A stretch of 38,344 nt of DNA from a virus (lineage: Duplodnaviria; Heunggongvirae; Uroviricota; Caudoviricetes), in IMG/VR virus record IMGVR_UViG_2740892016_000005; one strand, given 5' to 3'. Made by a program: the position numbers and the translations under genes. The notes under the pieces are model-generated. The model saw only the letters and a list, made by a program, of their open reading frames with translations, was not told the origin of the DNA and made no database searches. Positions 5,743 to 36,311 of the stretch are shown piece after piece. Numbering within the stretch: position 1 is the stretch's first letter; the number at the start of each line of letters is the position of its first letter.

Positions 5743-7194
5743 TTATTTTATTTTGCTTACTATATTTGTAATAAGTGGGTCAAATTTCTCATCAATAATT
5801 TCAATATATTTTTTTATTGCTAAAGTTCTAATTACTTCCTCCTCACATTCTGCTTCTTTAGCAATTGCTTGAGTGTAATTGTGATGATCACTAATCCCTT
5901 CCTTTTTTATTAACCAATCAAAATCAATATGATACTCCTTGTAGAGGAATTTTTTTACTTCCTCATGTTGAAATACTTCTACTTCTGGTGGCCTATTGCC
6001 AGGGAAAGAAAATAAATCATCTTTAATGTTTTCTCCAACATCTGCATCTCTTACGGCAATAACATTAAGGCCTGCTTTCTTGAATACCTCGACTGCTTGT
6101 CGGACTGCATCTTTATCTCCAATATCAGTGATTTGAATGGATTTAAGAATGTCTCTCCGCTTTGCTCTAATTACTTCACTAAGTAAAACTTTTGCAAACT
6201 GGTCTTCTACGCAAATATGCAGCCCTTTAAACTGCCCATCAGACAGTATTGATCTCACATGAGTTGTTGAAATTCCATCTTTGATATAGACACCAGTCTG
6301 ATCTCTAATAAGTAATTTTCGTGCATCAGGAGGTAAAGCATTTAATATCACACTTGAGTGTGTTGATAATATTATTTGATGTTTTCTACGTTGACATACT
6401 TCCATTAAATATTTTGCAAATTCATACTGTGCGCTTTCATGAAGAGATGTTTCTGGTTCTTCTAGTACGAAAAGACTTTGCTCTGGAGCTGTTTCAAGCA
6501 TATCAACCGTATAAAGAACTCTTCCTTCGCCAAACCCCATGTTATTTTCAGAATAAGAATACCCAAGTCTTTCAACAATACCAATTTCTGAACGACGTGC
6601 TCTATGAGAAATTCCTTGGAATGCGATATCATCATATGGATGACCTATTATTTTTGCCATCTTCAATATTACTGAATGGTCGACGCTTCTTCTCTCTGTT
6701 AAATCAAAGTCTTTACCGCCATAAACACTTATATCTCTACGTTCTACTTTTGGAATATAGACAGTAAAACCAATGTAAAAACAGTGTCTTTCTGGTTGTC
6801 TTTTATATCCAGACCAAGAAGACTTTATGCGAGTGACAGTCACATCTTGTGTTTTCGTTGAATCATTTGTTTCATATTTATAAATGACACTGGCGTCATT
6901 ATCGAAAGGGGCTGGATCGGCTTTAGATACAGGGAAAAAATCTTTAATATATAATCTCTTATATTCACGGGCTGTAACTGGTTTTTTATATGCGCATATT
7001 GCTAACTGCCCAAGAGTGCTTTTCCCAGCGCCGTTTAGCCCTGATATTGCAGTTACCGGAAAATTTATATTTAATGTTAGTTTTTTTATTCCTCGAAATC
7101 CATTTATCTCTAGACTTTTAATTACGGAGCCAAAGTTTGAGTATCTATTTTTATCAAAGTACATGCATTTTAGTATATTTTTTATGTCTGACAT
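5743..7194 (-). CDS. ABC-type (AAA_15/21-like) ATPase with C-terminal TOPRIM-like domain; OLD/PARIS-like candidate defence nuclease
   Basis: 483 aa. Walker A GLNGAGKST; Walker B/D-loop SLFVLEEPETSLH; H-loop ILSTHSS; C-terminal acidic motifs LHICVEDQ and VIAVRDADVGE consistent with TOPRIM. Gene is AT-rich relative to flanks; RBS aggaaag; own promoter-like signals. Confidence 0.85.
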   Translation of the reverse strand: MSDIKNILKCMYFDKNRYSNFGSVIKSLEINGFRGIKKLTLNINFPVTAISGLNGAGKSTLGQLAICAYKKPVTAREYKRLYIKDFFPVSKADPAPFDNDASVIYKYETNDSTKTQDVTVTRIKSSWSGYKRQPERHCFYIGFTVYIPKVERRDISVYGGKDFDLTERRSVDHSVILKMAKIIGHPYDDIAFQGISHRARRSEIGIVERLGYSYSENNMGFGEGRVLYTVDMLETAPEQSLFVLEEPETSLHESAQYEFAKYLMEVCQRRKHQIILSTHSSVILNALPPDARKLLIRDQTGVYIKDGISTTHVRSILSDGQFKGLHICVEDQFAKVLLSEVIRAKRRDILKSIQITDIGDKDAVRQAVEVFKKAGLNVIAVRDADVGENIKDDLFSFPGNRPPEVEVFQHEEVKKFLYKEYHIDFDWLIKKEGISDHHNYTQAIAKEAECEEEVIRTLAIKKYIEIIDEKFDPLITNIVSKIK

Positions 7195-25980: not shown

Positions 25981-28900
25981 ATGGGTAAAGGCAGCAGTAA
26001 GGGGCATACCCCGCGCGAAGCGAAGGATAACCTGAAATCCACGCAGTTACTGAGTGTGATCGATGCCATCAGCGAAGGGCCGATTGAAGGTCCGGTGGGT
26101 GGATTAAAAAGCGTGCTGCTGAACAGTACACCGGTGCTGGACAGTGAGGGGAATACCAACATCTCCGGTGTCACGGTGGTGTTCCGGGCAGGTGAGCAGG
26201 AGCAGACACCGCCGGAGGGATTTGAATCCTCCGGTTCCGAGACGGTGCTGGGTACGGAAGTGAAATACGACACGCCGATCACCCGGACCATCACGTCTGC
26301 AAACATCGACCGTCTGCGCTTTACCTTCGGTGTGCAGGCACTGGTGGAAACCACCTCAAAGGGTGACCGGAATCCGTCGGAAGTCCGCCTGCTGGTTCAG
26401 ATACAGCGTAACGGTGGCTGGGTGACAGAAAAAGACATCACCATTAAGGGCAAAACCACGTCGCAGTATCTGGCCTCGGTGGTGGTGGATAACCTGCCGC
26501 CGCGACCGTTCAATATCCGGATGCGCAGGATGACACCGGACAGCACCACAGACCAGCTGCAGAACAAAACGCTCTGGTCGTCATACACCGAAATCATCGA
26601 TGTGAAACAGTGCTACCCGAACACGGCACTGGTCGGCGTGCAGGTGGATTCGGAGCAGTTCGGCAGCCAGCAGGTGAGCCGTAATTATCATCTTCGCGGG
26701 CGCATTCTGCAGGTGCCGTCGAACTATAACCCGCAGACGCGGCAATACAGCGGTATCTGGGACGGGACGTTTAAACCGGCATACAGCAACAACATGGCCT
26801 GGTGTCTGTGGGATATGCTGACCCATCCGCGCTACGGCATGGGGAAGCGTCTCGGTGCGGCGGATGTGGACAAATGGGCGCTGTATGTCATCGGCCAGAA
26901 TTGCGACCAGTCGGTGCCGGATGGCTTTGGTGGCACGGAGCCGCGCATCACCTGTAATGCCTACCTGACCACACAGCGTAAGGCGTGGGATGTTCTCAGT
27001 GATTTCTGCTCGGCGATGCGCTGTATGCCGGTATGGAACGGGCAGACGCTGACGTTCGTGCAGGACCGACCGTCGGATAAGGTGTGGACCTATAACCGCA
27101 GTAATGTGGTGATGCCGGATGATGGCGCGCCGTTCCGCTACAGCTTCAGCGCCCTGAAGGACCGCCATAATGCCGTTGAGGTGAACTGGATTGACCCGGA
27201 TAACGGCTGGGAGACGGCGACAGAGCTTGTGGAGGACACGCAGGCCATTGCCCGTTACGGTCGTAACGTCACGAAGATGGATGCCTTTGGCTGTACCAGT
27301 CGGGGGCAGGCACACCGCGCCGGGCTGTGGCTGATTAAAACAGAACTGCTGGAAACGCAGACCGTGGATTTCAGCGTCGGCGCAGAAGGGCTTCGCCATG
27401 TACCGGGCGATGTTATTGAAATCTGTGATGATGACTATGCCGGTATCAGCACCGGTGGTCGTGTGCTGGCGGTGAACAGCCAGACCCGGACGCTGACGCT
27501 CGACCGTGAAATCACGCTGCCATCCTCCGGTACCACGCTGATAAGCCTGGTTGACGGAAGTGGCAATCCGGTCAGCGTGGAGGTTCAGTCCGTCACCGAC
27601 GGCGTGAAGGTAAAAGTGAGCCGTGTTCCTGACGGTGTTGCTGAATACAGCGTATGGGGGCTGAAGCTGCCGACGCTGCGCCAGCGACTGTTCCGCTGCG
27701 TGAGTATCCGTGAGAACGACGACGGCACGTATGCCATCACCGCCGTGCAGCATGTGCCGGAAAAAGAGGCCATCGTGGATAACGGGGCGCACTTTGACGG
27801 CGAACAGAGTGGCACGGTGAACGGTGTCACGCCGCCAGCGGTGCAGCACCTGACCGCAGAAGTCACTGCAGACAGCGGGGAATATCAGGTGCTGGCGCGC
27901 TGGGATACGCCGAAGGTGGTGAAGGGTGTGAGCTTTATGCTTCGCCTGACCGTGGCAGCGGATGACGGCAGTGAGCGGCTGGTCAGCACGGCCCGGACGA
28001 CGGAAACCACATACCGCTTCAGGCAGCTGGCGCTGGGAAGCTACAGGCTGACAGTCCGGGCGGCAAATGCCTGGGGGCAGCAGGGCGATCCTGCATCGGT
28101 ATCGTTCCGGATTGCCGCACCGGCAGCGCCGTCGCGGATTGAGCTGACGCCGGGCTATTTTCAGATAACCGCCACGCCCCATCTTGCCGTTTATGATCCG
28201 ACGGTACAGTTTGAGTTCTGGTTCTCGGAAAAGCGGATTGCGGATATCAGGCAGGTTGAAACCACAGCCCGCTATCTTGGCACGGCGCTGTACTGGATAG
28301 CTGCCAGTATCAATATCAAACCGGGCCATGATTATTATTTTTACATCCGCAGTGTGAACACCGTTGGCAAATCGGCATTCGTGGAGGCTGTCGGTCGGGC
28401 GAGCGATGATGCGGAAGGTTACCTGGATTTTTTCAAAGGCCAGATAACCGAATCCCATCTCGGCAAGGAGCTGCTGGAAAAAGTCGAGCTGACGGAGGAT
28501 AACGCCAGCAAACTGGAGGAGTTCTCGAAAGAGTGGAAGGACGCCAACGATAAATGGAATGCCATGTGGGGCGTCAAAATTGAGCAGACCGAAGACGGCA
28601 GGCATTATGTCGCGGGGCTTGGCCTTAGTATGGAGGATACGGAGGAAGGCAAACTGAGCCAGTTCCTGGTTGCCGCTAACCGTATCGCGTTTATTGACCC
28701 GGCAAACGGGAATGAAACGCCGATGTTTGTGGCGCAGGGTAACCAGATATTCATGAACGAAGTGTTCCTGAAGTATCTGACGGCTCCCACCATTACCAGT
28801 GGCGGCAATCCGCCGGTATTTTCCCTGACACCGGACGGGCGGCTGACGGCGAAAAATGCCGATATCAGCGGTAACGTGAATGCGAACTCCGGGACGCTCA

Positions 28901-29379
28901 ATAATGTCACGATTAACCAGAACTGTCGGATTCTGGGAAAACTGTCTGCCAACCAGATTGAAGGTGATATTGTCAAAACGGTGGGAAAAGCCTTTCCGAG
29001 AAATGGCAGTTATGCCAGCGGTACAATAACGGTCACTGTGTACGATGACCAGGCTTTTGACCGTCAGATAGTAATCCCACCCGTTCTGTTTCGCGGTGGT
29101 AAGCATGAAAACTTCAACAGCAACAACCAACAGTCATACTGGTATTCAACCTGTAAGCTGCAGGTGCTGAAGAACGGACAGGAAATCTTTCAGCAACCCG
29201 CGACGGATGTCAGCAGGGTATTTTCATCCGTCATTGATATGCCTGCCGGACACGGTCATGTCACCCTGACTTTCAATGTTTCTTCATATGGTGCTAATAA
29301 CTGGACGCCAACGACCAGTATCAGCGACCTTCTTGTTGTCGTGATGAAGAAATCAACAGCCGGTATCAGTATCAGTTGA
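25981..29379 (+). CDS. J: Tail tip / host specificity protein J
   Basis: 1132 aa; lambda gpJ-like over most of its length; C-terminal ~150 aa diverge from lambda J as I recall it. Confidence 0.95.
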
Positions 29380-29446: not shown

Positions 29447-30046
29447 ATGCGTAAATTATGTGCTGTTATTCTGTCTGCAGTAGTCTGGCTGGTCGCCGCT
29501 GGTACGCCAGCGAGTGCAGCAGAGCATCAGTCCACACTAAGCGGCGGGTATCTTCAGTCCCATACTGATATGCCCGGCAACGATGACCTGAAGGGCATTA
29601 ACGTGAAATACCGTTATGAATTTACGGACACGCTGGGGCTGGTGACGTCATTCAGTTATGCCAATGCCAAAGATGAGCAAAAAACGCATTACAGCGATAC
29701 CCGCTGGCATGAAGATTCAGTGCGTAACCGCTGGTTCAGCATGATGGCGGGGCCATCTGTACGCGTGAATGAATGGTTCAGTGCTTATGCGATGGCGGGT
29801 ATGGCTTACAGCCGTGTGTCGACCTTCTCCGGGGATTATCTCCGCGTAACTGACAACAAGGGGAAAACGCACGATGTGCTGACCGGAAGTGATGACGGTC
29901 GCCACAGCAACACGTCTCTGGCGTGGGGGGCTGGCGTGCAGTTTAACCCGACCGAATCCGTGGCCATTGACCTTGCTTATGAAGGTTCCGGCAGTGGCGG
30001 CTGGCGCACTGACGGGTTCATCGTGGGTGTTGGTTATAAATTCTGA
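29447..30046 (+). CDS. lom: Lom/Ail-family outer-membrane beta-barrel protein
   Basis: 199 aa; signal peptide and C-terminal GYKF; matches lambda Lom. Confidence 0.9.
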   Translation: MRKLCAVILSAVVWLVAAGTPASAAEHQSTLSGGYLQSHTDMPGNDDLKGINVKYRYEFTDTLGLVTSFSYANAKDEQKTHYSDTRWHEDSVRNRWFSMMAGPSVRVNEWFSAYAMAGMAYSRVSTFSGDYLRVTDNKGKTHDVLTGSDDGRHSNTSLAWGAGVQFNPTESVAIDLAYEGSGSGGWRTDGFIVGVGYKF

Positions 30047-30099: not shown

Positions 30100-30110
30100 G
30101 TGGAGTGGAT

Positions 30111-32468
30111 ATGGCAGCAGTAAAAATCTCAGGTGTGCTGAAAGATGGTGCGGGAAAACCAATACAGAACTGCACTATTCAACTGAAGGCAAAGCGTAAC
30201 AGCACTACGGTACTGGTCAACACGGTGGCCTCTGAAAATCCGGATGAAGCCGGGCGTTACAGCATGGATGTTGAGTATGGCCAGTACAGCGTCACCCTGC
30301 TGGTTGAAGGTTTTCCGCCTTCACATGCCGGGACCATTACCGTCTATGAAGGTTCCAGACCAGGTACGCTGAATGATTTTCTCGGTGCCATGACGGAAGA
30401 GGATGTCATGCCGGAGGCATTGCGCCGTTTTGAGGAAATGGTGGAAGAAGCGGCACGCAACGCCGAAGCCGCCTCTCAGAGCGCAGCGGCGGCAAAGAAA
30501 TCCGAAACTGCAGCGGCATCATCGAAGAACGCGGCGAAAAGCTCAGAAACGAATGCAGCTAACAGCGCCCAGGCGGCAGCGGCCTCGCAGACTGCATCGG
30601 CAAACTCCGCGACAGCAGCCAAAAAATCAGAAACCAACGCGAAAAATAGCGAGACAGCCGCAAAGACGAGCGAAACCAACGCAAAGTCCAGCCAGACGGC
30701 AGCGAAGACCAGCGAAACGAATGCCAAAGCCAGTGAAACTGCGGCGAAAAATAGCCAGAATGCAGCAGCCGAAAGCGAGAGCGCGGCAGCCGGTTCTGCG
30801 ACTGCAGCAGCTGGATCAGCAACTGCTGCGGCTAACAGCCAGAAAGCAGCGAAGACGAGCGAAACTAACGCAAAGTCCAGCCAGACGGCAGCGAAGACCA
30901 GCGAAACGAATGCCAAAGCCAGCGAAACTGCGGCGAAAAACAGCCAGGATGCAGCAGCCCAAAGCGAGAGTGCCGCAGCTGGTTCTGCAACAGCGGCAGC
31001 TAATAGCCAAAAAGCTGCAAAAACCAGTGAAACTAACGCAAAGACGAGTGAAACAAAAGCAGCAGCCAGCGAGACAGAAGCAACGTCAGCCGCAACAAGA
31101 GCAGAGAATGCAGCCCGGATTGCAGAAGATGCCGCTGATCCTGCTTCTGTCCCTCCGCTTCCTGATATCTGGCTACCCTTGAATGATTCTCTGGAAGCGA
31201 TAACAGGGTATGCCCCGGGCTATAAAACAATAACCATCGGCAGTGATGAAATAACAATGCCTGTTAATGGCATATGCCAATTTAGCCGGGCTTCATCTGC
31301 AACGTATATTGATAAGTCCGGGCATATTACCGTGGCAGGGAATAACGTTCCTCGTTTTGAAAAATATGGTTTGCTGATAGAGAATCAGCGAACAAACATG
31401 TTCGTAAATAGTTTTAATCCTGATGCGTGGAATAAAAGCGGTGGTATATCTGTAACATCATCAACAGATGAATTTGAGTTTAAATATGGACGTTTCACAG
31501 TAGGAAGTGAGATAGCAGGAACGACAACAGGGAGAAATATATGCACAGTTGCTGGTAATAAAGGCATAGATGTGACTGGCGATGATCAGTACAGTAAAGG
31601 TCCGTATGTTACCGCGTCGTTCAGGGTAAGAAGTGATCTCAATGTTCGCGCACGTATCCGTTTTGAACGGTATAACTCGGAAGGATACACTTTCCTTTGT
31701 GACGCCTATTTGTCATTACAGACTCATGAACTACAAATTACGGGTGGTAATGCCCAGCTATTAACAGCAAACTTTGAAATCGACCCTGGTAGTGGATGGA
31801 TATATTTTCAGGCAACACTGAAATGTCTGCCAGAATGGGGAATGGTTGGTACGCAGCTGCAAATTGCAGCCGACAGAGCAGTGGGGGCTTTTGCAACAGG
31901 TGACTGGATAGAAGTAACCACCCCGCAATTCGAGTATGGTGCTTGTGCAACTTCCTTTATCATAACGACAACAGAGCCAGCGACTCGTGCATCAGATTTA
32001 TGTAAATTTCCGCTGATGAAAAATATGTATACCATGCCTTTTACGTTCATGGTGGAAGTCCATAAAAACTGGTTTATTTCTCATAATGCTGCACCGCGTG
32101 TCATTGATTCAGAAAATCACCAGTCCGGAGGCCCATTTATTATGGGGTTTGGTTCTTCTGGAACTATCAGTCAGGATGGTTATTCGTATTGCGATATAGG
32201 CGGGGCTAACCGGCGTGTATATGAGTCATGCGGAGTAAGAGATCTCGTTATGGGATTCAGGGTTAAGGCTGACGGCATGACATGCTCATTTGCAAATAAG
32301 CATATAAGCACAGAAACAAAAACAGTATGGAAATATATTCGTGAAGCTGCCGTGATTCGTATTGGGGGGCAAACGACGACAGGATTGCGACACCTTAATG
32401 GTCATATAAAAAATCTCCGTTTCTGGAACAGAGCATTGTCAGATACGCAGCTTAAGGAATACGTATAA
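30111..32468 (+). CDS. stf: Side tail fibre protein (Stf-like) with repetitive shaft and divergent distal domain
   Basis: ORF 30105..32468 trimmed to ATG 30111 (RBS ggag). N-terminus lambda Stf-like (MAAVKISGVLKDGAGKPIQNCTIQLKAKRNSTTV...); Ala/Ser/Thr-rich repeats; C-terminal part AT-rich and not lambda-like. Confidence 0.85.
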   Translation: MAAVKISGVLKDGAGKPIQNCTIQLKAKRNSTTVLVNTVASENPDEAGRYSMDVEYGQYSVTLLVEGFPPSHAGTITVYEGSRPGTLNDFLGAMTEEDVMPEALRRFEEMVEEAARNAEAASQSAAAAKKSETAAASSKNAAKSSETNAANSAQAAAASQTASANSATAAKKSETNAKNSETAAKTSETNAKSSQTAAKTSETNAKASETAAKNSQNAAAESESAAAGSATAAAGSATAAANSQKAAKTSETNAKSSQTAAKTSETNAKASETAAKNSQDAAAQSESAAAGSATAAANSQKAAKTSETNAKTSETKAAASETEATSAATRAENAARIAEDAADPASVPPLPDIWLPLNDSLEAITGYAPGYKTITIGSDEITMPVNGICQFSRASSATYIDKSGHITVAGNNVPRFEKYGLLIENQRTNMFVNSFNPDAWNKSGGISVTSSTDEFEFKYGRFTVGSEIAGTTTGRNICTVAGNKGIDVTGDDQYSKGPYVTASFRVRSDLNVRARIRFERYNSEGYTFLCDAYLSLQTHELQITGGNAQLLTANFEIDPGSGWIYFQATLKCLPEWGMVGTQLQIAADRAVGAFATGDWIEVTTPQFEYGACATSFIITTTEPATRASDLCKFPLMKNMYTMPFTFMVEVHKNWFISHNAAPRVIDSENHQSGGPFIMGFGSSGTISQDGYSYCDIGGANRRVYESCGVRDLVMGFRVKADGMTCSFANKHISTETKTVWKYIREAAVIRIGGQTTTGLRHLNGHIKNLRFWNRALSDTQLKEYV
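30490..31090 (+). repeat. Tandem coding repeats within stf
   Basis: Short KTSETNAK-type units plus two long near-identical copies of ~188 bp (about 30660-30847 and 30848-31015). Confidence 0.7.
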
Positions 32469-32737
32469 TGCGGGATATAACATTACGGTTCGATAACAGA
32501 GAACAGTTTAACGCAATTGTATATGACAGTGGCCTGTTCAGTCTTGAAGAAGAAAACGGGGTTCTTGTTGATGTTATTGGCTGCATTATCGATTACGAGG
32601 AGCCAGAAAACGAAAGATGTACAGGCATTGATCGCGGTGGTTTTTTCGTAAACATGAGGATTGTTGATAGCAGTAAAAACATATCTTCTTTAATGCCTTT
32701 CATTACGACAGATCAGCATGTAAGGACATGGGCTTAA
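32468..32737 (+). CDS. Hypothetical protein (tail-fibre accessory?)
   Basis: 89 aa; ATG overlaps the stf stop (TAATG); no motif recognised. Confidence 0.45.
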   Translation: MRDITLRFDNREQFNAIVYDSGLFSLEEENGVLVDVIGCIIDYEEPENERCTGIDRGGFFVNMRIVDSSKNISSLMPFITTDQHVRTWA

Positions 32738-32749
32738 TGGAGTAAGACA

Positions 32750-33433
32750 ATGGTTACAAAAACAGTAATTCCGGGAGACATCACCACGCTAAAGGGAGAT
32801 ATTTCCTCAATTAACGGAAAAGTATCAACGCTTCAGACTGAGATGACCAGTGCAAAGCAGGATATCAGCTCCAGATACACAAAAACTGAAGTTGATAATA
32901 AGCTGAAAAACAAAGTGGAAGTGAACGATCTGGAAAGTGGTCGTTATGGCGGAGATTTTTATCCACTGACAGGTCGTGAAGCGTTTTATTTATGGAATTT
33001 GGCCACGACTACAGCGGCGGCAAACCTTTATCTTAATCCTGACCCTGCAATTTCGTCTGTGCTGCGGTCAACATCGTCTATCCGCTATAAACATTCAGTA
33101 GAGACGATAGATTCAGAGCACGCCGATCTCATTTTCAAGATGCGCCCTGTGTGGTACAGGTCGCAATGCGAAAATGACAGGCGCGATTGGGGATTCTATG
33201 GATTGATTGCCGAGGAAGTAGGAGAAATTGCCCCCCAGTTTGTACACTGGCGATCAGCTAACGAAGATGATGCACCGGAAGCTATTTCCAGCAATGGCCT
33301 TGTTGCCGAAGGTGTAATGTACGAACGTCTGGTTGTTCCACTGATTCACCATATCCAGAAACTGACTGAAAGAGTTGATGAACTTGAGTCAGAATTGAAG
33401 TTGTTATCAACTTCCCGAAGCGATATCGGATAA
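32750..33433 (+). CDS. Short tail fibre/spike-like protein with C-terminal S74-type intramolecular chaperone domain
   Basis: 227 aa; C-terminal ~120 aa (SSIRYKHSVETID...DLIFKMRPVWY...GFYGLIAEEVGEIAPQFV...VMYERLVVPLIHHIQKLTERVDELESELKLL) follow the pattern of endosialidase-type autoproteolytic chaperone domains. Confidence 0.7.
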   Translation: MVTKTVIPGDITTLKGDISSINGKVSTLQTEMTSAKQDISSRYTKTEVDNKLKNKVEVNDLESGRYGGDFYPLTGREAFYLWNLATTTAAANLYLNPDPAISSVLRSTSSIRYKHSVETIDSEHADLIFKMRPVWYRSQCENDRRDWGFYGLIAEEVGEIAPQFVHWRSANEDDAPEAISSNGLVAEGVMYERLVVPLIHHIQKLTERVDELESELKLLSTSRSDIG

Positions 33434-34532: not shown

Positions 34533-36311
34533 TCACCCCCTAGATCTTGCTGAAAGCTCATCTTTATAAGCCATTCTTGGCGTGTAAAAATTATGGAATG
34601 CCTTACCTATTGCACCATTGAAAAGCTTAAGCAATGGTTTATTGCTCCCTGCGTTTAAAATATTCCTCATTGCTATACCAGGGTATGGATCTATGTAATA
34701 TATTTGTTTGATCCCTAATTGATACGCTTTTTTAGAACATAATTCACAAGGGCTTGCTGTTGTGAACAAAAAACCATTCTGTATACCAACGCCACCATAC
34801 TTAGATATTTGTAAGAAAGCATTCTCTTCAGCATGAAGTGATCTTGTAAAAACTTGATTAGCGTTAGATTTTATTTTGTCAATAATAGCAAACTCATCAT
34901 CATTTAACTTATGTTCGACCCGTAGATCTTCTTTGTATTTATCATCAAGGATATTATTCCATTCTGTTTTAAAACAAAATGGAGCTCTCATTCCTTTATT
35001 TTTAACATCTAAAAAAATAATCTTAGTGCTATCTATTTTTCGAATGAAACTATTTTCGTTCTTTTCGAATTCAGAGTAAGCAATATCATCAATCCCCTCA
35101 GACAAATCAAACCTATCCCTTAAAGAGCAAGGAACTTGACCACTTGGTACATCATTCCAACCAATAGACTTAATTGAAAATGAACTATCAGATACTGCAG
35201 CGCCTACCTGCCTGGATATACAACCAGAGTTCAACTTAGCTGTATATGCTATCTGCATGCAACGTTCAACATTTGATGGAGTTATTATACCAGGACGCTT
35301 CATTAATGAAGTGAATTTAATTAATTGATTAGCCAATCCTGAGTACCGACAAACAACATTTTCCTCTTCCGGATTCTCAACATAGATGTCTGATATTTCT
35401 AAACAAGACTGTATATTCTGATATATATATGATGACTTCTCATCCAAAGATGATTTACGGTATTCTTTTGCATCAATATCTTTTATCTCAGCATCAGTTA
35501 AACCTTGTTCTCTAAGCCTTTGATGCCTGTAATGCTCTTCTGTAGAAACAGCCATTAAATAAAATGATGAGTATCTATCTTGGAAGTATGTTGCTTCGAA
35601 CGGATTTCTTATAGCATCAATAACTATATAAATAGGTTTCTTTTCTCCAGTTTTTGTGTTCTTTTCTTTTGCTAAGGTTCTTAATCTTTGAATTATATCA
35701 TTTATTTTTTTAGGAAGAAAAAAACCATGGAAATCATCACTAAATGAACTGTCATGGTACATCCCACTAGATCTATAATTATTACCTATAGCTTGATATA
35801 GCTTTATATAGTCAGCCTTGTTCTTAAATATGGATTTAATTTGTGTATTCGCTTTTATTAGATATTCATTTATGAATTTTATCTTATCATCTATATCATG
35901 ATCAGAGCTTTCATCTTTAGCTTTAATTTCTTTTAGTATAGATTCAAGATCATTAACTGTTGACTCTAGGACTCTTTGGTCATTACCTAACTCCGTCACT
36001 TCCCGAATAAATTTATTCAGCTTACCATCAAAGTCCTTTGATAAACACAATGTCAGTATGGAACTTGCTTGTATTTTTATAAATGGAACCCATGACACGG
36101 AAAAATATTTAAATAGAACCCGCTCTTTTCTTTCTTCATTCGACTTAGGGTAATCACCGTTAAATAGAGAATGCTTTATCTCACTTGATTCTGATGACAG
36201 TATATTAGAAACTGTTGAACAGCCTGACCCCGTCCTCCCTGTTAATCCTATAATTAGGAAATCATCATCTTCACTATATATTTTACTCAGTGCGTCATTA
36301 TAAAAACCCAT
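34533..36311 (-). CDS. P-loop NTPase / dCMP-deaminase fusion protein; AvcD/DCD-like candidate nucleotide-depletion defence
   Basis: 592 aa. N-terminal deviant P-loop GLTGRTGSGCST; C-terminal deaminase motifs ERCMQIAYTAKLNSGCISRQVGAAV, HAEENA and PCELC (zinc ligands). AT-rich; RBS ggag; own promoter-like -10. Confidence 0.9.
   Translation of the reverse strand: MGFYNDALSKIYSEDDDFLIIGLTGRTGSGCSTVSNILSSESSEIKHSLFNGDYPKSNEERKERVLFKYFSVSWVPFIKIQASSILTLCLSKDFDGKLNKFIREVTELGNDQRVLESTVNDLESILKEIKAKDESSDHDIDDKIKFINEYLIKANTQIKSIFKNKADYIKLYQAIGNNYRSSGMYHDSSFSDDFHGFFLPKKINDIIQRLRTLAKEKNTKTGEKKPIYIVIDAIRNPFEATYFQDRYSSFYLMAVSTEEHYRHQRLREQGLTDAEIKDIDAKEYRKSSLDEKSSYIYQNIQSCLEISDIYVENPEEENVVCRYSGLANQLIKFTSLMKRPGIITPSNVERCMQIAYTAKLNSGCISRQVGAAVSDSSFSIKSIGWNDVPSGQVPCSLRDRFDLSEGIDDIAYSEFEKNENSFIRKIDSTKIIFLDVKNKGMRAPFCFKTEWNNILDDKYKEDLRVEHKLNDDEFAIIDKIKSNANQVFTRSLHAEENAFLQISKYGGVGIQNGFLFTTASPCELCSKKAYQLGIKQIYYIDPYPGIAMRNILNAGSNKPLLKLFNGAIGKAFHNFYTPRMAYKDELSARSRG

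Follow-up and report, generated by a model that had tools for sequence, protein, structure and literature searches.

How a tandem array arose in the shaft of a side tail fiber gene, and whether it still changes the length of the fiber, is the question raised by a prophage locus in the 38,344-nt stretch of viral DNA analyzed here (IMG/VR record IMGVR_UViG_2740892016_000005; hereafter, the window). An earlier note, made from the sequence alone, had described two near-identical ~188-bp units in tandem, at about 30660-30847 and 30848-31015, and had proposed that such an array is prone to slippage and recombination and may vary fiber length between relatives.

A lambda-type side tail fiber gene carries the array

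The region 30111..32468 (+) is assigned to a lambda-type side tail fiber gene (stf) of a lambda-like Escherichia coli prophage. Its product counts 785 aa from the ATG at 30111 (the ORF opens at a GTG at 30105), and RefSeq places stf at the same coordinates, 30111-32468 (CDS WP_061089081.1). The assignment relies on the N-terminal collar (attachment) domain PF08400, which together with the start of the helical region spans 30117..30506 (+; Pfam E = 2.2e-66), on the location of the gene directly downstream of J (25981-29379) and lom (29447-30046), and on the BLASTP match of the protein to lambda orf-401 (E = 4e-86), which has gaps of 7, 7, and 14 aa and reaches into the rod. The N terminus is also matched by PDB entry 9e7m, covering residues 2-94 of Ur-lambda gpStf (phmmer E = 6.8e-49), and a match to phrog_1419 (“tail protein”) spans the product end to end. 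The distal part (31146..32468, +), presumably receptor binding, corresponds to phrog_1419 and phrog_5939 and contains an NF048003 “phage head spike fiber” domain (aa 422-627, nt 31374-31991, +; NCBIfam E = 1.7e-12); AlphaFold2 models a beta-rich structure at about aa 440-610 of this part with a pLDDT of 80 to 94. Two genes that travel with this distal module follow at 32468..33433 (+), one for a phrog_1361 protein of 89 aa and the other for a protein of 227 aa that contains a chaperone domain of the Peptidase_S74 type. The same downstream gene order is found in PhiR55_1, 2G7b, IdasGreatGrand, CFT073, and others.

The Stf proteins of lambda and Ur-lambda resemble the one studied here in gene position (J, lom, stf), N-terminal domain, and the AAKTSETNA motif. 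In Ur-lambda, Stf trimers assemble on a collar where the tail tube meets the tail tip (gpV/gpM) and speed up adsorption (PMC12617516). However, lambda lacks the 63-aa u1/u2 pair described below; its own internal duplication comprises 70 aa (ten heptads) and is older and ~60% identical. The distal half of lambda Stf resembles gp37, binds to OmpC, and is assembled with the help of Tfa, whereas that of the window Stf is of the NF048003 type and comes with other accessory genes. The prophage fibers EPclA-D (Ghosh et al., PLoS One 2012, PMC3368898) likewise have PF08400 followed by an Ala/Ser-rich heptad region (PfN-PCoil), but differ by their collagen (Gly-X-Y) and PfC domains. Stf yielded no Pfam match to collagen or PfC and has just 3 Gly in the 229-aa rod; lacking a collagen (Gly-X-Y)n domain, it was not counted among these collagen-like fibers. 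Membership in PF03406 (Phage_fiber_2 repeat) was also rejected, with no match in Stf at E values up to 0.01.

The shaft is an unbroken heptad rod

The shaft forms a rod of ~31 unbroken heptads with the consensus x-S-E-T-A-A-K (30456..31139, +; aa 116-343). In the heptad table, Ala occupies core position a in 30 of 31 heptads and Ser core position d in 29 of 31, and Fourier analysis gave peaks at 7.0 and 3.5 residues. Repetition is hierarchical, from the 7-aa heptad through a 14-aa AAKTSETNAKxSxT motif (42-nt period) to the 63-aa unit; the intermediate level bears out the short KTSETNAK-type repeats reported earlier. The AlphaFold2 monomer contains a continuous helix at aa 102-289, although at low confidence (pLDDT of 50 to 75, falling after about aa 286). 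For the full-length monomer, the mean pLDDT was 52, and the last 170 residues were left unmodeled because the homologues in the alignment are all ≤602 aa.

By sequence similarity, the rod is the homologue of residues 102-393 of Ur-lambda gpStf, a proximal trimeric coiled coil according to cryo-EM/cryo-ET density and segment-wise AlphaFold3 modeling (PMC12617516), and of the published PCoil domain. Circular dichroism reported in PMC3368898 shows PfN-PCoil of an E. coli prophage fiber to be alpha-helical. By homology to these two proteins, the rod would be a trimeric coiled coil, to which each 63-aa unit should add ~9 nm (~17 to 18 nm for u1 and u2 together). An Ala/Ser core is unusual for a coiled coil and counts against such a structure. 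Residues 34-227 of the L-shaped tail fiber of phage T5 (PDB 8hqz chain d) showed weak similarity to rod aa 151-346 (E = 1.3e-5, weakening to 8e-4 when the rod was searched by itself). This low similarity, possibly an effect of composition, suggests that an Ala/Ser-rich heptad segment of the same kind may occur in another siphophage side fiber. Other PDB matches to the rod, to RNA polymerase II CTD heptads (YSPTSPS) and depolymerase fragments with E values of 1e-4 to 1e-2, were discarded as periodic low-complexity artifacts, not homology.

Two tandem units of nine and eight heptads

Within the rod, unit u1 (30657..30845, +; aa 183-245) comprises 189 nt, that is, 63 aa or nine heptads, and is followed by unit u2 (30846..31013, +; aa 246-301) with 168 nt, 56 aa, and eight heptads. 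A tandem repeat can be read in any register, and these bounds, set in the protein register, lie within 3 nt of those proposed in the earlier note. Tandem Repeats Finder (TRF) delimited an array at 30648-31001 with a period of 189 and 1.9 copies (score of 603; 90% matches without indels), with period-42 and period-21 arrays nested within the stf repeat region, and a repeat search of the window returned the 189-nt pair at a spacing of 189 along with a family of ten 21-nt-phased copies. The second unit had been said to lack a 21-bp sub-repeat. Indeed, u2 is short by one GSATAAA heptad of exactly 21 nt, a gap that can be placed anywhere within unit positions 125-156. The corresponding sub-repeat pair of u1 (GSATAAA GSATAAA), present as a single copy in u2, maps to 30786..30833 (+) and is evident both as a TRF period-21 array (30786-30826) and as the 21-nt alignment gap. 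This difference is fixed throughout the lineage with this distal module and is no private slippage event. The longest identical run between u1 and u2 spans 56 nt (30678..30733, +; partner at 30867-30922) and is a likely substrate of unequal recombination or slippage. Right after u2, alignment to the unit heads revealed a further AAKTSETNAKTSET motif, the start of a third degenerate copy, which is succeeded by the last rod heptads (31014..31055, +; TRF period-21 array at 31017-31083).

Self-comparison by offset placed the best 168-nt ungapped identity within the array, 90.5%, at offset 189, versus 52 to 68% at all other multiples of 21 and ≤44% at out-of-phase offsets. Heptad-codon block shuffles (n = 2,000) yielded a mean identity of 63.0% with a standard deviation of 2.6 and a maximum of 73.2%. 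The observed value is thus >10 standard deviations above the shuffles, and the tandem structure goes beyond low-complexity composition.

Rod length varies mostly in whole heptads around exchangeable distal modules

Shaft lengths of homologous proteins fell into classes 157, 164, 185, 199, 206, 234, 248, 255, and 262, all congruent to 3 modulo 7, which cover 79 of the 85 protein clusters sharing the linker; these clusters, all ≤602 aa as listed and many labeled partial at the source, served for shaft lengths and not for full-length comparison. Off-phase classes 183, 194, 250, and 258 are represented by one cluster each. The same distal clusters were found with several shaft lengths, and this association of one distal module with several rod lengths suggests that rod length is loosely constrained. 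Variation of PCoil domain length in multiples of seven was already published in 2012 (PMC3368898), and the array is an ordinary, largely documented way for side fibers to vary in length. Our literature search found no explicit description of the nine-heptad tandem unit, and the passages of PMC3368898 found with search terms mention neither this unit nor its one- and three-copy hybrid derivatives.

A mosaic junction is located at the end of u2 (30995..31005), where near-identity to the stf genes of the 2G7b, ev207, and CFT073 type ends and beyond which the distal modules differ. Megablast matches stop at query position 897 (window position 31001) and at position 602 of a query starting at 30400, and protein comparison was also used to set the junction. 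The 2G7b/ev207/Tritos group has the proximal 897 nt, including both units, in common with the window stf, whereas in 2G7b-type genes u2 is complete (63 aa) and the distal module is a different one. The stf genes of PhiR55_1, PhiR47_1, and PhiR11_1 match the window stf along their entire length at 97 to 98% identity and likewise have a 63+56 array. It could be argued that the nine-heptad unit is a selectable length module, one to three copies of which (~9 nm each) would tune side-fiber reach beyond the J fiber, with selection matching the rod to the distal module and to the host surface layer (O-antigen or capsule). Such a role, which we regard as doubtful, would explain why the window-type distal module always comes with a 63+56 rod.

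Hybrid units record unequal recombination between u1 and u2

Comparison among related prophages uncovered relatives with one, two, or possibly three units, along with single-heptad differences inside units, in keeping with the proposed variation of fiber length. Single-unit arrays occur in four complete E. coli genomes (CB209, MSB1_4I, FFFEB2, and AVS0655). Phage IdasGreatGrand also has a single unit, a hybrid that starts with a u1 head and crosses over to a u2 tail between unit positions 115 and 126. Its diagnostic sites 6 to 115 are all of the u1 type, position 3 alone having the A of the u2 copies, and at least 14 u2-specific nucleotides lie beyond position 126; very few differences separate its head from the u1 that LD67-1 and the window have today, or its tail from modern u2. 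The reciprocal hybrid, with a u2 head and a u1 tail, is the middle one of three units in locus L014, with a crossover between positions 21 and 78 that falls inside the 56-nt identical stretch (30678..30733). This possible three-copy allele is one 8-kb contig of an IMG/VR draft assembly, for which mis-assembly between two prophage stf genes is the alternative explanation; a search of complete E. coli genomes found no three-copy array, the best 25 being two-copy without exception. An independent loss of a single heptad in u1 was found in locus L061.

The hybrid units show past unequal recombination between u1 and u2, and the one- and three-copy hybrid arrays have the sequence makeup that would be expected of unequal crossing-over. 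The polarity could be the opposite, with the one-copy allele ancestral, the two-copy array derived, and the IdasGreatGrand unit looking chimeric because u1 tails and u2 heads diverged later. A single unit must indeed have been duplicated at some time, and some shafts (class 157) are shorter and lack the unit. However, this order of events is less parsimonious, as it needs u1 tails and u2 heads to diverge afterwards, and it accounts poorly for the abrupt switch from u1 to u2 characters in the IdasGreatGrand unit, for the likeness of its head to modern u1 and of its tail to modern u2, which fits a recent recombinant, and for the reciprocal-type hybrid in L014. We thus hold it to be unlikely and favor unequal recombination within an existing two-copy array.

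The two-copy array appears old and stably inherited

Copies of u1 are 95 to 99.5% identical across six genomes, and 63-aa-type u2 copies are 94 to 97% identical among themselves, versus 84 to 88% between u1 and the 63-aa-type u2 copies and 89 to 91% between u1 and the window's own u2, in which the head is of the u2 type and the tail is u1-like in protein and diverged at synonymous sites. The u1s of different prophages group with one another, and so do the u2s. In the window, the two units differ by 13 synonymous and 2 nonsynonymous changes. Of 115 substitutions, 73 lie at codon position 3 of stf. Since many prophages have orthologous copies of each unit, and u1 differs from u2 by ~9 to 16%, mostly at synonymous sites, the two-copy state is old and stably inherited rather than the state of a fast-slipping locus. 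The claim that the array is prone to slippage and recombination thus stands insofar as hybrid units attest to past unequal u1-u2 recombination, but, given the orthology and divergence of the units, the array is not hypervariable.

The window matches the complete chromosome of E. coli Z247 at 100% identity, and all 40 listed full-length matches from complete E. coli genomes (out of 131 records with at least 80% of the gene covered) have a span of 2,364 nt, as do the full-length matches of phages PhiR55_1 and PhiR47_1; the array is therefore not an assembly artifact. An actively unstable (contingency-type) locus, in which frequent copy-number change diversifies fiber length quickly in populations, would draw on the 56-nt exact run, sufficient for RecA-dependent or slippage events, on the varying copy and heptad numbers among relatives, and on short-read assemblies that often end in u1 (partial proteins of 222 to 236 aa represent 325 to 444 member sequences each). 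Yet these contig breaks reflect assembler limits, not biology, and frequent turnover would homogenize copies that are instead orthologous and diverged (~9% in the window). The 63+56 arrangement is identical in the 40 listed full-length matches, 19 IMG/VR loci, and 25 window-type protein clusters, and unit lengths that are multiples of 3 nt make on/off switching impossible. Instability of this kind is very improbable, and stable inheritance with occasional change remains the preferred reading. A phase-variable repeat was rejected as well, since every unit length (21, 42, 189, and 168 nt) is divisible by 3 and every examined allele is in frame. We also rejected a diversity-generating retroelement: where the u1 and u2 heads differ, the base in u1 is C, A, C, T, T, A, and G in turn, and the 43 genes annotated in the window include no reverse transcriptase.

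Overlapping reading frames and compositional bias

The earlier note had also pointed to long shadow ORFs in other frames and on the other strand. Five are present, namely, a 259-aa ORF in the +1-shifted frame (30403..31182, +), a 146-aa antisense ORF that shares its wobble positions with stf (30476..30916, −), and three more short antisense ORFs (30559-30822, 30816-31010, and 31033-31257, −). Pfam searches returned no match for the first two or for the two short ORFs that were tested. Synonymous-to-nonsynonymous counts were 71:39 in the stf frame, 21:89 in the +1 frame, and 53:54 in the antisense frame of 30476-30916. In the rod, T is found at 0% of stf codon positions 2 and 7% of positions 1, and the absence of T at position 2 renders the +1 frame unable to form a stop codon. 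These ORFs are by-products of compositional bias.

That one of them, e.g., the antisense ORF at 30476-30916, is a real overlapping gene, selection on which partly conserves the repeats, is scarcely credible. This ORF is open for 146 codons, 139 of which encode residues identical to a RefSeq “hypothetical protein” of CFT073 (WP_011076512.1), and its 53:54 count is the least bad among the non-stf frames. However, wobble sharing with stf inflates apparent synonymy by itself, and the stf frame still scores better; openness follows from the scarcity of T at stf positions 2 and 1; translation gives low-complexity strings, hydrophobic or of Arg/Gln/Pro, that match no Pfam family; and the CFT073 annotation lies inside an intact stf ORF of 799 aa that was wrongly split. 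Lambda orf206b is an analogous case. Finally, the idea that the duplication is an assembly artifact (an expanded or collapsed repeat) or mere low-complexity Ala/Ser/Thr/Lys/Glu composition can be dismissed. In its favor, Ala and Ser account for 83 and 38 of 229 aa, and 21-nt periodicity extends all through the region. Against it, identity at offset 189 reaches 90.5% when shuffles peak at 73%, the copies differ at ~9% of sites so that reads place uniquely, and the identical structure recurs in many complete genomes and phage isolates that were sequenced independently.

Origin of the array and implications for side tail fibers

Collectively, these findings make it very probable that a block of nine heptads (189 bp, 63 aa) in the Stf coiled-coil rod was duplicated in tandem and in frame, and that this duplication is old, kept by selection, and occasionally changed by unequal recombination or slippage. 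The rod would link the tail-gripping N-terminal collar domain to an exchangeable distal receptor-binding module. The duplication would have arisen once, before the present E. coli prophage lineages split, and both copies would since have been held under purifying selection on the protein. Since exact runs of up to 56 nt are still common to u1 and u2, unequal homologous recombination or replication slippage may occasionally drop or gain a whole unit, giving rise to one-copy and perhaps three-copy alleles with hybrid units. The same process would drop or gain single 21-bp heptads, one of which was probably lost from u2 in the window lineage. Nearly all surviving changes are of whole heptads, preserving the coiled-coil register. 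Changes in units may alter the reach of the side fiber, with whatever effect on adsorption this has, and would leave attachment and receptor binding untouched. The repeated motifs also mark the place where differing distal modules join the conserved proximal part.

The understanding of tail fibers is unchanged by these results, and their importance is mainly practical. The array is a clean, small example of unequal crossing-over with reciprocal hybrid products in a structural repeat. It explains the mishandling of stf genes by short-read assembly, in which contigs end in u1, and by automatic annotation; in CFT073, EC28, and YL03, intact stf ORFs are annotated as a pseudogene plus a “head spike fiber” protein. 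As a register-preserving site for changes of rod length and distal module, it would be useful for engineering chimeric lambda Stf proteins for delivery vectors.

RESULTS

The window, a lambdoid prophage whose head, tail, and lysis modules resemble those of lambda, is identical to positions 4259713-4298056 of the Escherichia coli Z247 chromosome (NZ_CP021207.1). Its 785-aa ORF at 30111-32468 (+; open from GTG 30105) follows J (25981-29379) and lom (29447-30046), and this location, together with three protein matches, identifies it as the side tail fibre gene, stf, as the earlier note had assigned it. Specifically, the first ∼130 residues match PF08400 ("prophage tail fibre N-terminal"; Pfam, E = 2e-66), residues 3-95 match the Ur-lambda gpStf collar domain, the structure of which is solved (PDB 9e7m; E = 7e-49), and residues 3-273 align with lambda orf-401, the N-terminal half of Stf (BLASTP, E = 4e-86), with sole gaps of 7, 7, and 14 residues. 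N-terminal domain, gene position, and rod thus place the protein in the lambda Stf family. Its distal half is unlike that of lambda and has an NF048003-type domain. Lambda carries tfa after stf; the window instead has genes for 89-aa (phrog_1361) and 227-aa proteins (32468-33433, +), which always follow the window-type distal module. The 227-aa protein, the C terminus of which matches both the Peptidase_S74-type intramolecular-chaperone domain and the C termini of long tail fibre proteins (phrog_3299, phrog_454), could be a small fibre in its own right or an assembly factor replacing lambda Tfa.

The stf rod consists of ∼31 consecutive heptads (residue 116 to ∼343; consensus x-S-E-T-A-A-K) without stutter. 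Of the two core positions, which lie four residues apart, the first is Ser in 29 of the 31 heptads and the second is Ala in 30, with Fourier peaks at 7.0 and 3.5 residues. In Ur-lambda gpStf, cryo-EM/cryo-ET density and segment-wise AlphaFold3 modelling together placed the collar at residues 1-91, a linker at 92-101, and a proximal trimeric coiled coil at 102-393 (PMC12617516). The "PCoil" following PF08400 in E. coli prophage fibre proteins is an Ala/Ser heptad region, alpha-helical by circular dichroism, with length varying by multiples of seven (PMC3368898).

Within the rod, heptads (21 nt) build a 14-aa AAKTSETNAKxSxT motif (42 nt), which in turn builds a 63-aa unit (189 nt). Tandem Repeats Finder placed a 1.9-copy array of period 189 at 30648-31001 (90% matches; score, 603), plus nested arrays of periods 42 and 21, and a second repeat search agreed with this picture. 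In protein register, the first unit, u1 (30657-30845, +; aa 183-245, 63 aa), reads AAKTSETNAKSSQTAAKTSETNAKASETAAKNSQNAAAESESAAAGSATAAAGSATAAANSQK; the second, u2 (30846-31013, +; aa 246-301, 56 aa), has the same sequence except for one N-to-D and one E-to-Q substitution and the lack of one GSATAAA heptad, which is the missing 21-bp sub-repeat described in the earlier note. The AlphaFold2 monomer forms one unbroken helix (residues 102-289) across u1 and most of u2 at pLDDT 50 to 75 (whole-protein mean 52), the low confidence expected for a single chain of a fibre. A coiled coil rises ∼0.148 nm per residue; u1 and u2 would add ∼9.3 and ∼8.3 nm, respectively, to a rod of ∼34 nm.

The best 168-nt ungapped self-identity, computed at every offset, was 90.5% at offset 189, 52 to 68% at all other multiples of 21, and at most 44% out of phase, whereas 2,000 shuffles of heptad-codon blocks averaged 63.0% (SD, 2.6; maximum, 73.2%). 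Since the value at offset 189 exceeds all shuffles, low-complexity composition alone was rejected as the source of the repeat, and the tandem duplication that had been proposed stands. An assembly artefact was also discarded: among the 131 records covering at least 80% of stf, all 40 full-length matches listed in complete E. coli genomes span 2364 nt, as do those in phages PhiR55_1 and PhiR47_1.

To date the duplication, units were compared among the window, phages 2G7b and IdasGreatGrand, and strains CFT073, EC28, LD67-1, and YL03. Across genomes, u1 copies are 95 to 99.5% identical, 63-aa-type u2 copies are 94 to 97% identical to each other, and window u2 is 90.5 to 91.7% identical to the latter. 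Unit u1 shares 84 to 88% identity with 63-aa-type u2 and ∼89 to 91% with window u2. Because u1 and u2 copies are more alike across genomes than u1 is to u2, the duplication must be older than the split of these prophages and has been stably inherited; this orthology also excludes a recent slip as the origin of the pair. Codon changes between u1 and u2 in the window (13 synonymous versus 2 nonsynonymous) indicate purifying selection on the protein in both units. In most relatives, u2 has its full 63 aa and the tail GSASAAAASATASANSQK. In the window lineage, it has 56 aa and the tail GSATAAANSQK, the DNA of which is no simple deletion derivative of other u2 copies. Near-identity to 2G7b/CFT073-type genes ends with u2, at 31001, where another distal module takes over, which marks the repeat also as a mosaic junction between a conserved proximal part and an exchangeable distal part.

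The suggestion that such arrays may vary between relatives was borne out, with one, two, and probably three units found, besides losses of single heptads. A pattern scan of IMG/VR retrieved two-unit arrays at no fewer than 120 loci, whereas single-unit arrays occur in the complete genomes CB209, MSB1_4I, FFFEB2, and AVS0655. The single unit of IdasGreatGrand is, at the nucleotide level, of u1 type at positions 6-115 and of u2 type at 126-189, with at least 14 u2-specific bases; in its head, only position 3 has a u2-type A. Such a pattern is what unequal crossing-over in a two-copy parent leaves when it deletes 189 bp. The same approach revealed one three-unit array, on L014 (an 8-kb contig from a draft assembly), with a middle unit that joins a u2 head to a u1 tail, reciprocally to IdasGreatGrand, the crossover lying inside a 56-nt run identical between u1 and u2. 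Each of the 25 top matches among complete E. coli genomes carries two units. The three-copy allele is regarded as probable. In another lineage, L061, a different heptad is gone, from u1.

Shaft length, taken as the distance between the PEALRRFE and LPD[IV]W[IL]P motifs in 120 protein clusters, fell into classes of 157, 164, 185, 199, 206, 234, 248, 255, and 262 residues with the common linker, all congruent to 3 modulo 7. These classes comprise 79 of the 85 clusters with this linker, off-phase classes having one cluster each. The window-type shaft is always 249 (one partial sequence, 250), a one-residue offset due to a different linker. Identical distal clusters are found on rods of several lengths, a pattern that speaks for repeated changes in length or recombination between shaft and distal part, and against rod length being strictly matched to the receptor-binding module. 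Part of the heptad array was also found on the 106-kb plasmid NZ_OZ369158.1 and at 109 plasmid places, in "phage head spike fiber" genes of E. coli plasmids that are possibly phage-plasmids; the rod module is thus not confined to chromosomal lambdoid prophages.

As also noted earlier, the repeat region carries shadow ORFs, i.e., long ORFs in other frames and on the other strand: 30403-31182 (+, +1-shifted frame; 259 aa), 30476-30916 (−; 146 aa), and three shorter antisense ones. Ala makes up 36% of the rod, Ser 17%, and Thr 12%, and T is absent at position 2 and only 7% at position 1 of its codons, so stops are impossible in the +1-shifted frame and rare in antisense. Of 115 substitutions that separate the window from six relatives, 73 are at the third stf codon position, and synonymous-to-nonsynonymous counts are 71:39 in the stf frame, 21:89 or worse in four other frames, and 53:54 in the antisense frame sharing the wobble position with stf, as geometry predicts. 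None of four shadow products tested matched Pfam, and neither these searches nor the substitution ratios gave evidence of coding function in the overlapping ORFs. The CFT073 antisense ORF is nevertheless listed as a RefSeq protein (WP_011076512.1; 139 of 146 residues identical to the window's), and a short sense ORF in CFT073 is likewise annotated as a hypothetical protein. Lambda orf206b (L009 1248-1868, −), a long-annotated hypothetical gene at the equivalent antisense position opposite the Stf coiled-coil region, is probably also a shadow ORF that arises from composition.

In CFT073 (L004 2210-4609), EC28 (L005 2210-4585), and YL03 (L007 2212-4611), stf is open for 799, 791, and 799 codons, yet RefSeq/PGAP splits it into an N-terminal "pseudogene, missing C-terminus" and a "phage head spike fiber domain-containing protein," which looks like a systematic annotation artefact of the repeat-rich rod. 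Many database "partial" Stf proteins (P0085, P0089, P0094, P0100, and P0103), standing for hundreds of member sequences each (444, 325, 326), terminate within u1 or shortly ahead of it, at 204 to 236 aa; the 189-bp duplication, or else stf copies common to several prophages, evidently interrupts short-read assembly.

Elsewhere in the window, a ClpP-like prohead protease/major capsid fusion gene (15318-17345, +) flagged as a RefSeq pseudogene ("internal stop") translates as 676 codons without interruption; an annotation problem, rather than a defective prophage, may lie behind the flag. A 592-aa "hypothetical protein" at the prophage end (34533-36311, −) matches the PADLOC dCTPase (dCTP deaminase) anti-phage defence model (E = 2e-127), a Pfam cytidine/deoxycytidylate deaminase domain and, weakly, AAA_18, and is likely a prophage-borne defence gene. 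Finally, a gene for an "ATP-dependent nuclease" (5743-7194, −) separates the Q antiterminator gene from the lysis genes and is probably a defence moron: its product matches HEC-04, a candidate defence model of PADLOC (E = 4e-47), and the AAA_15/AAA_21 ATPase domains that typify OLD/Gabija/PARIS-like systems.

DISCUSSION

The stf duplication is confirmed and its initial interpretation was correct; the feature itself is ordinary. The proposed proneness of the array to slippage and recombination held in part: hybrid units and residual identity of up to 56 nt speak for it, but the pair is old and stably inherited, and the relatives compared gave no evidence of rapid within-lineage variation. Evidence was likewise lacking for frame switching or DGR-type mutagenesis at the stf array. 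The coiled-coil nature of the rod (PMC12617516, PMC3368898) and its length polymorphism in multiples of seven (PMC3368898) have been reported before. New here are the delineation of a nine-heptad unit, the finding that u1 and u2 are each orthologous from prophage to prophage, the reciprocal hybrids as a record of unequal crossing-over, and the annotation and assembly artefacts caused by the repeat.

In the best-supported reading, the rod would be a spacer built by successive in-phase tandem duplications, the 63-aa pair representing one such event, fixed long ago; lambda has its own older ten-heptad duplication. In-phase change is favoured by both 21-nt periodic homology (mutation) and coiled-coil register (selection), with shares inseparable here. 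The residual identity, up to 56 nt exact, would allow rare unequal recombination or slippage, the products of which would survive if the heptad register is kept.
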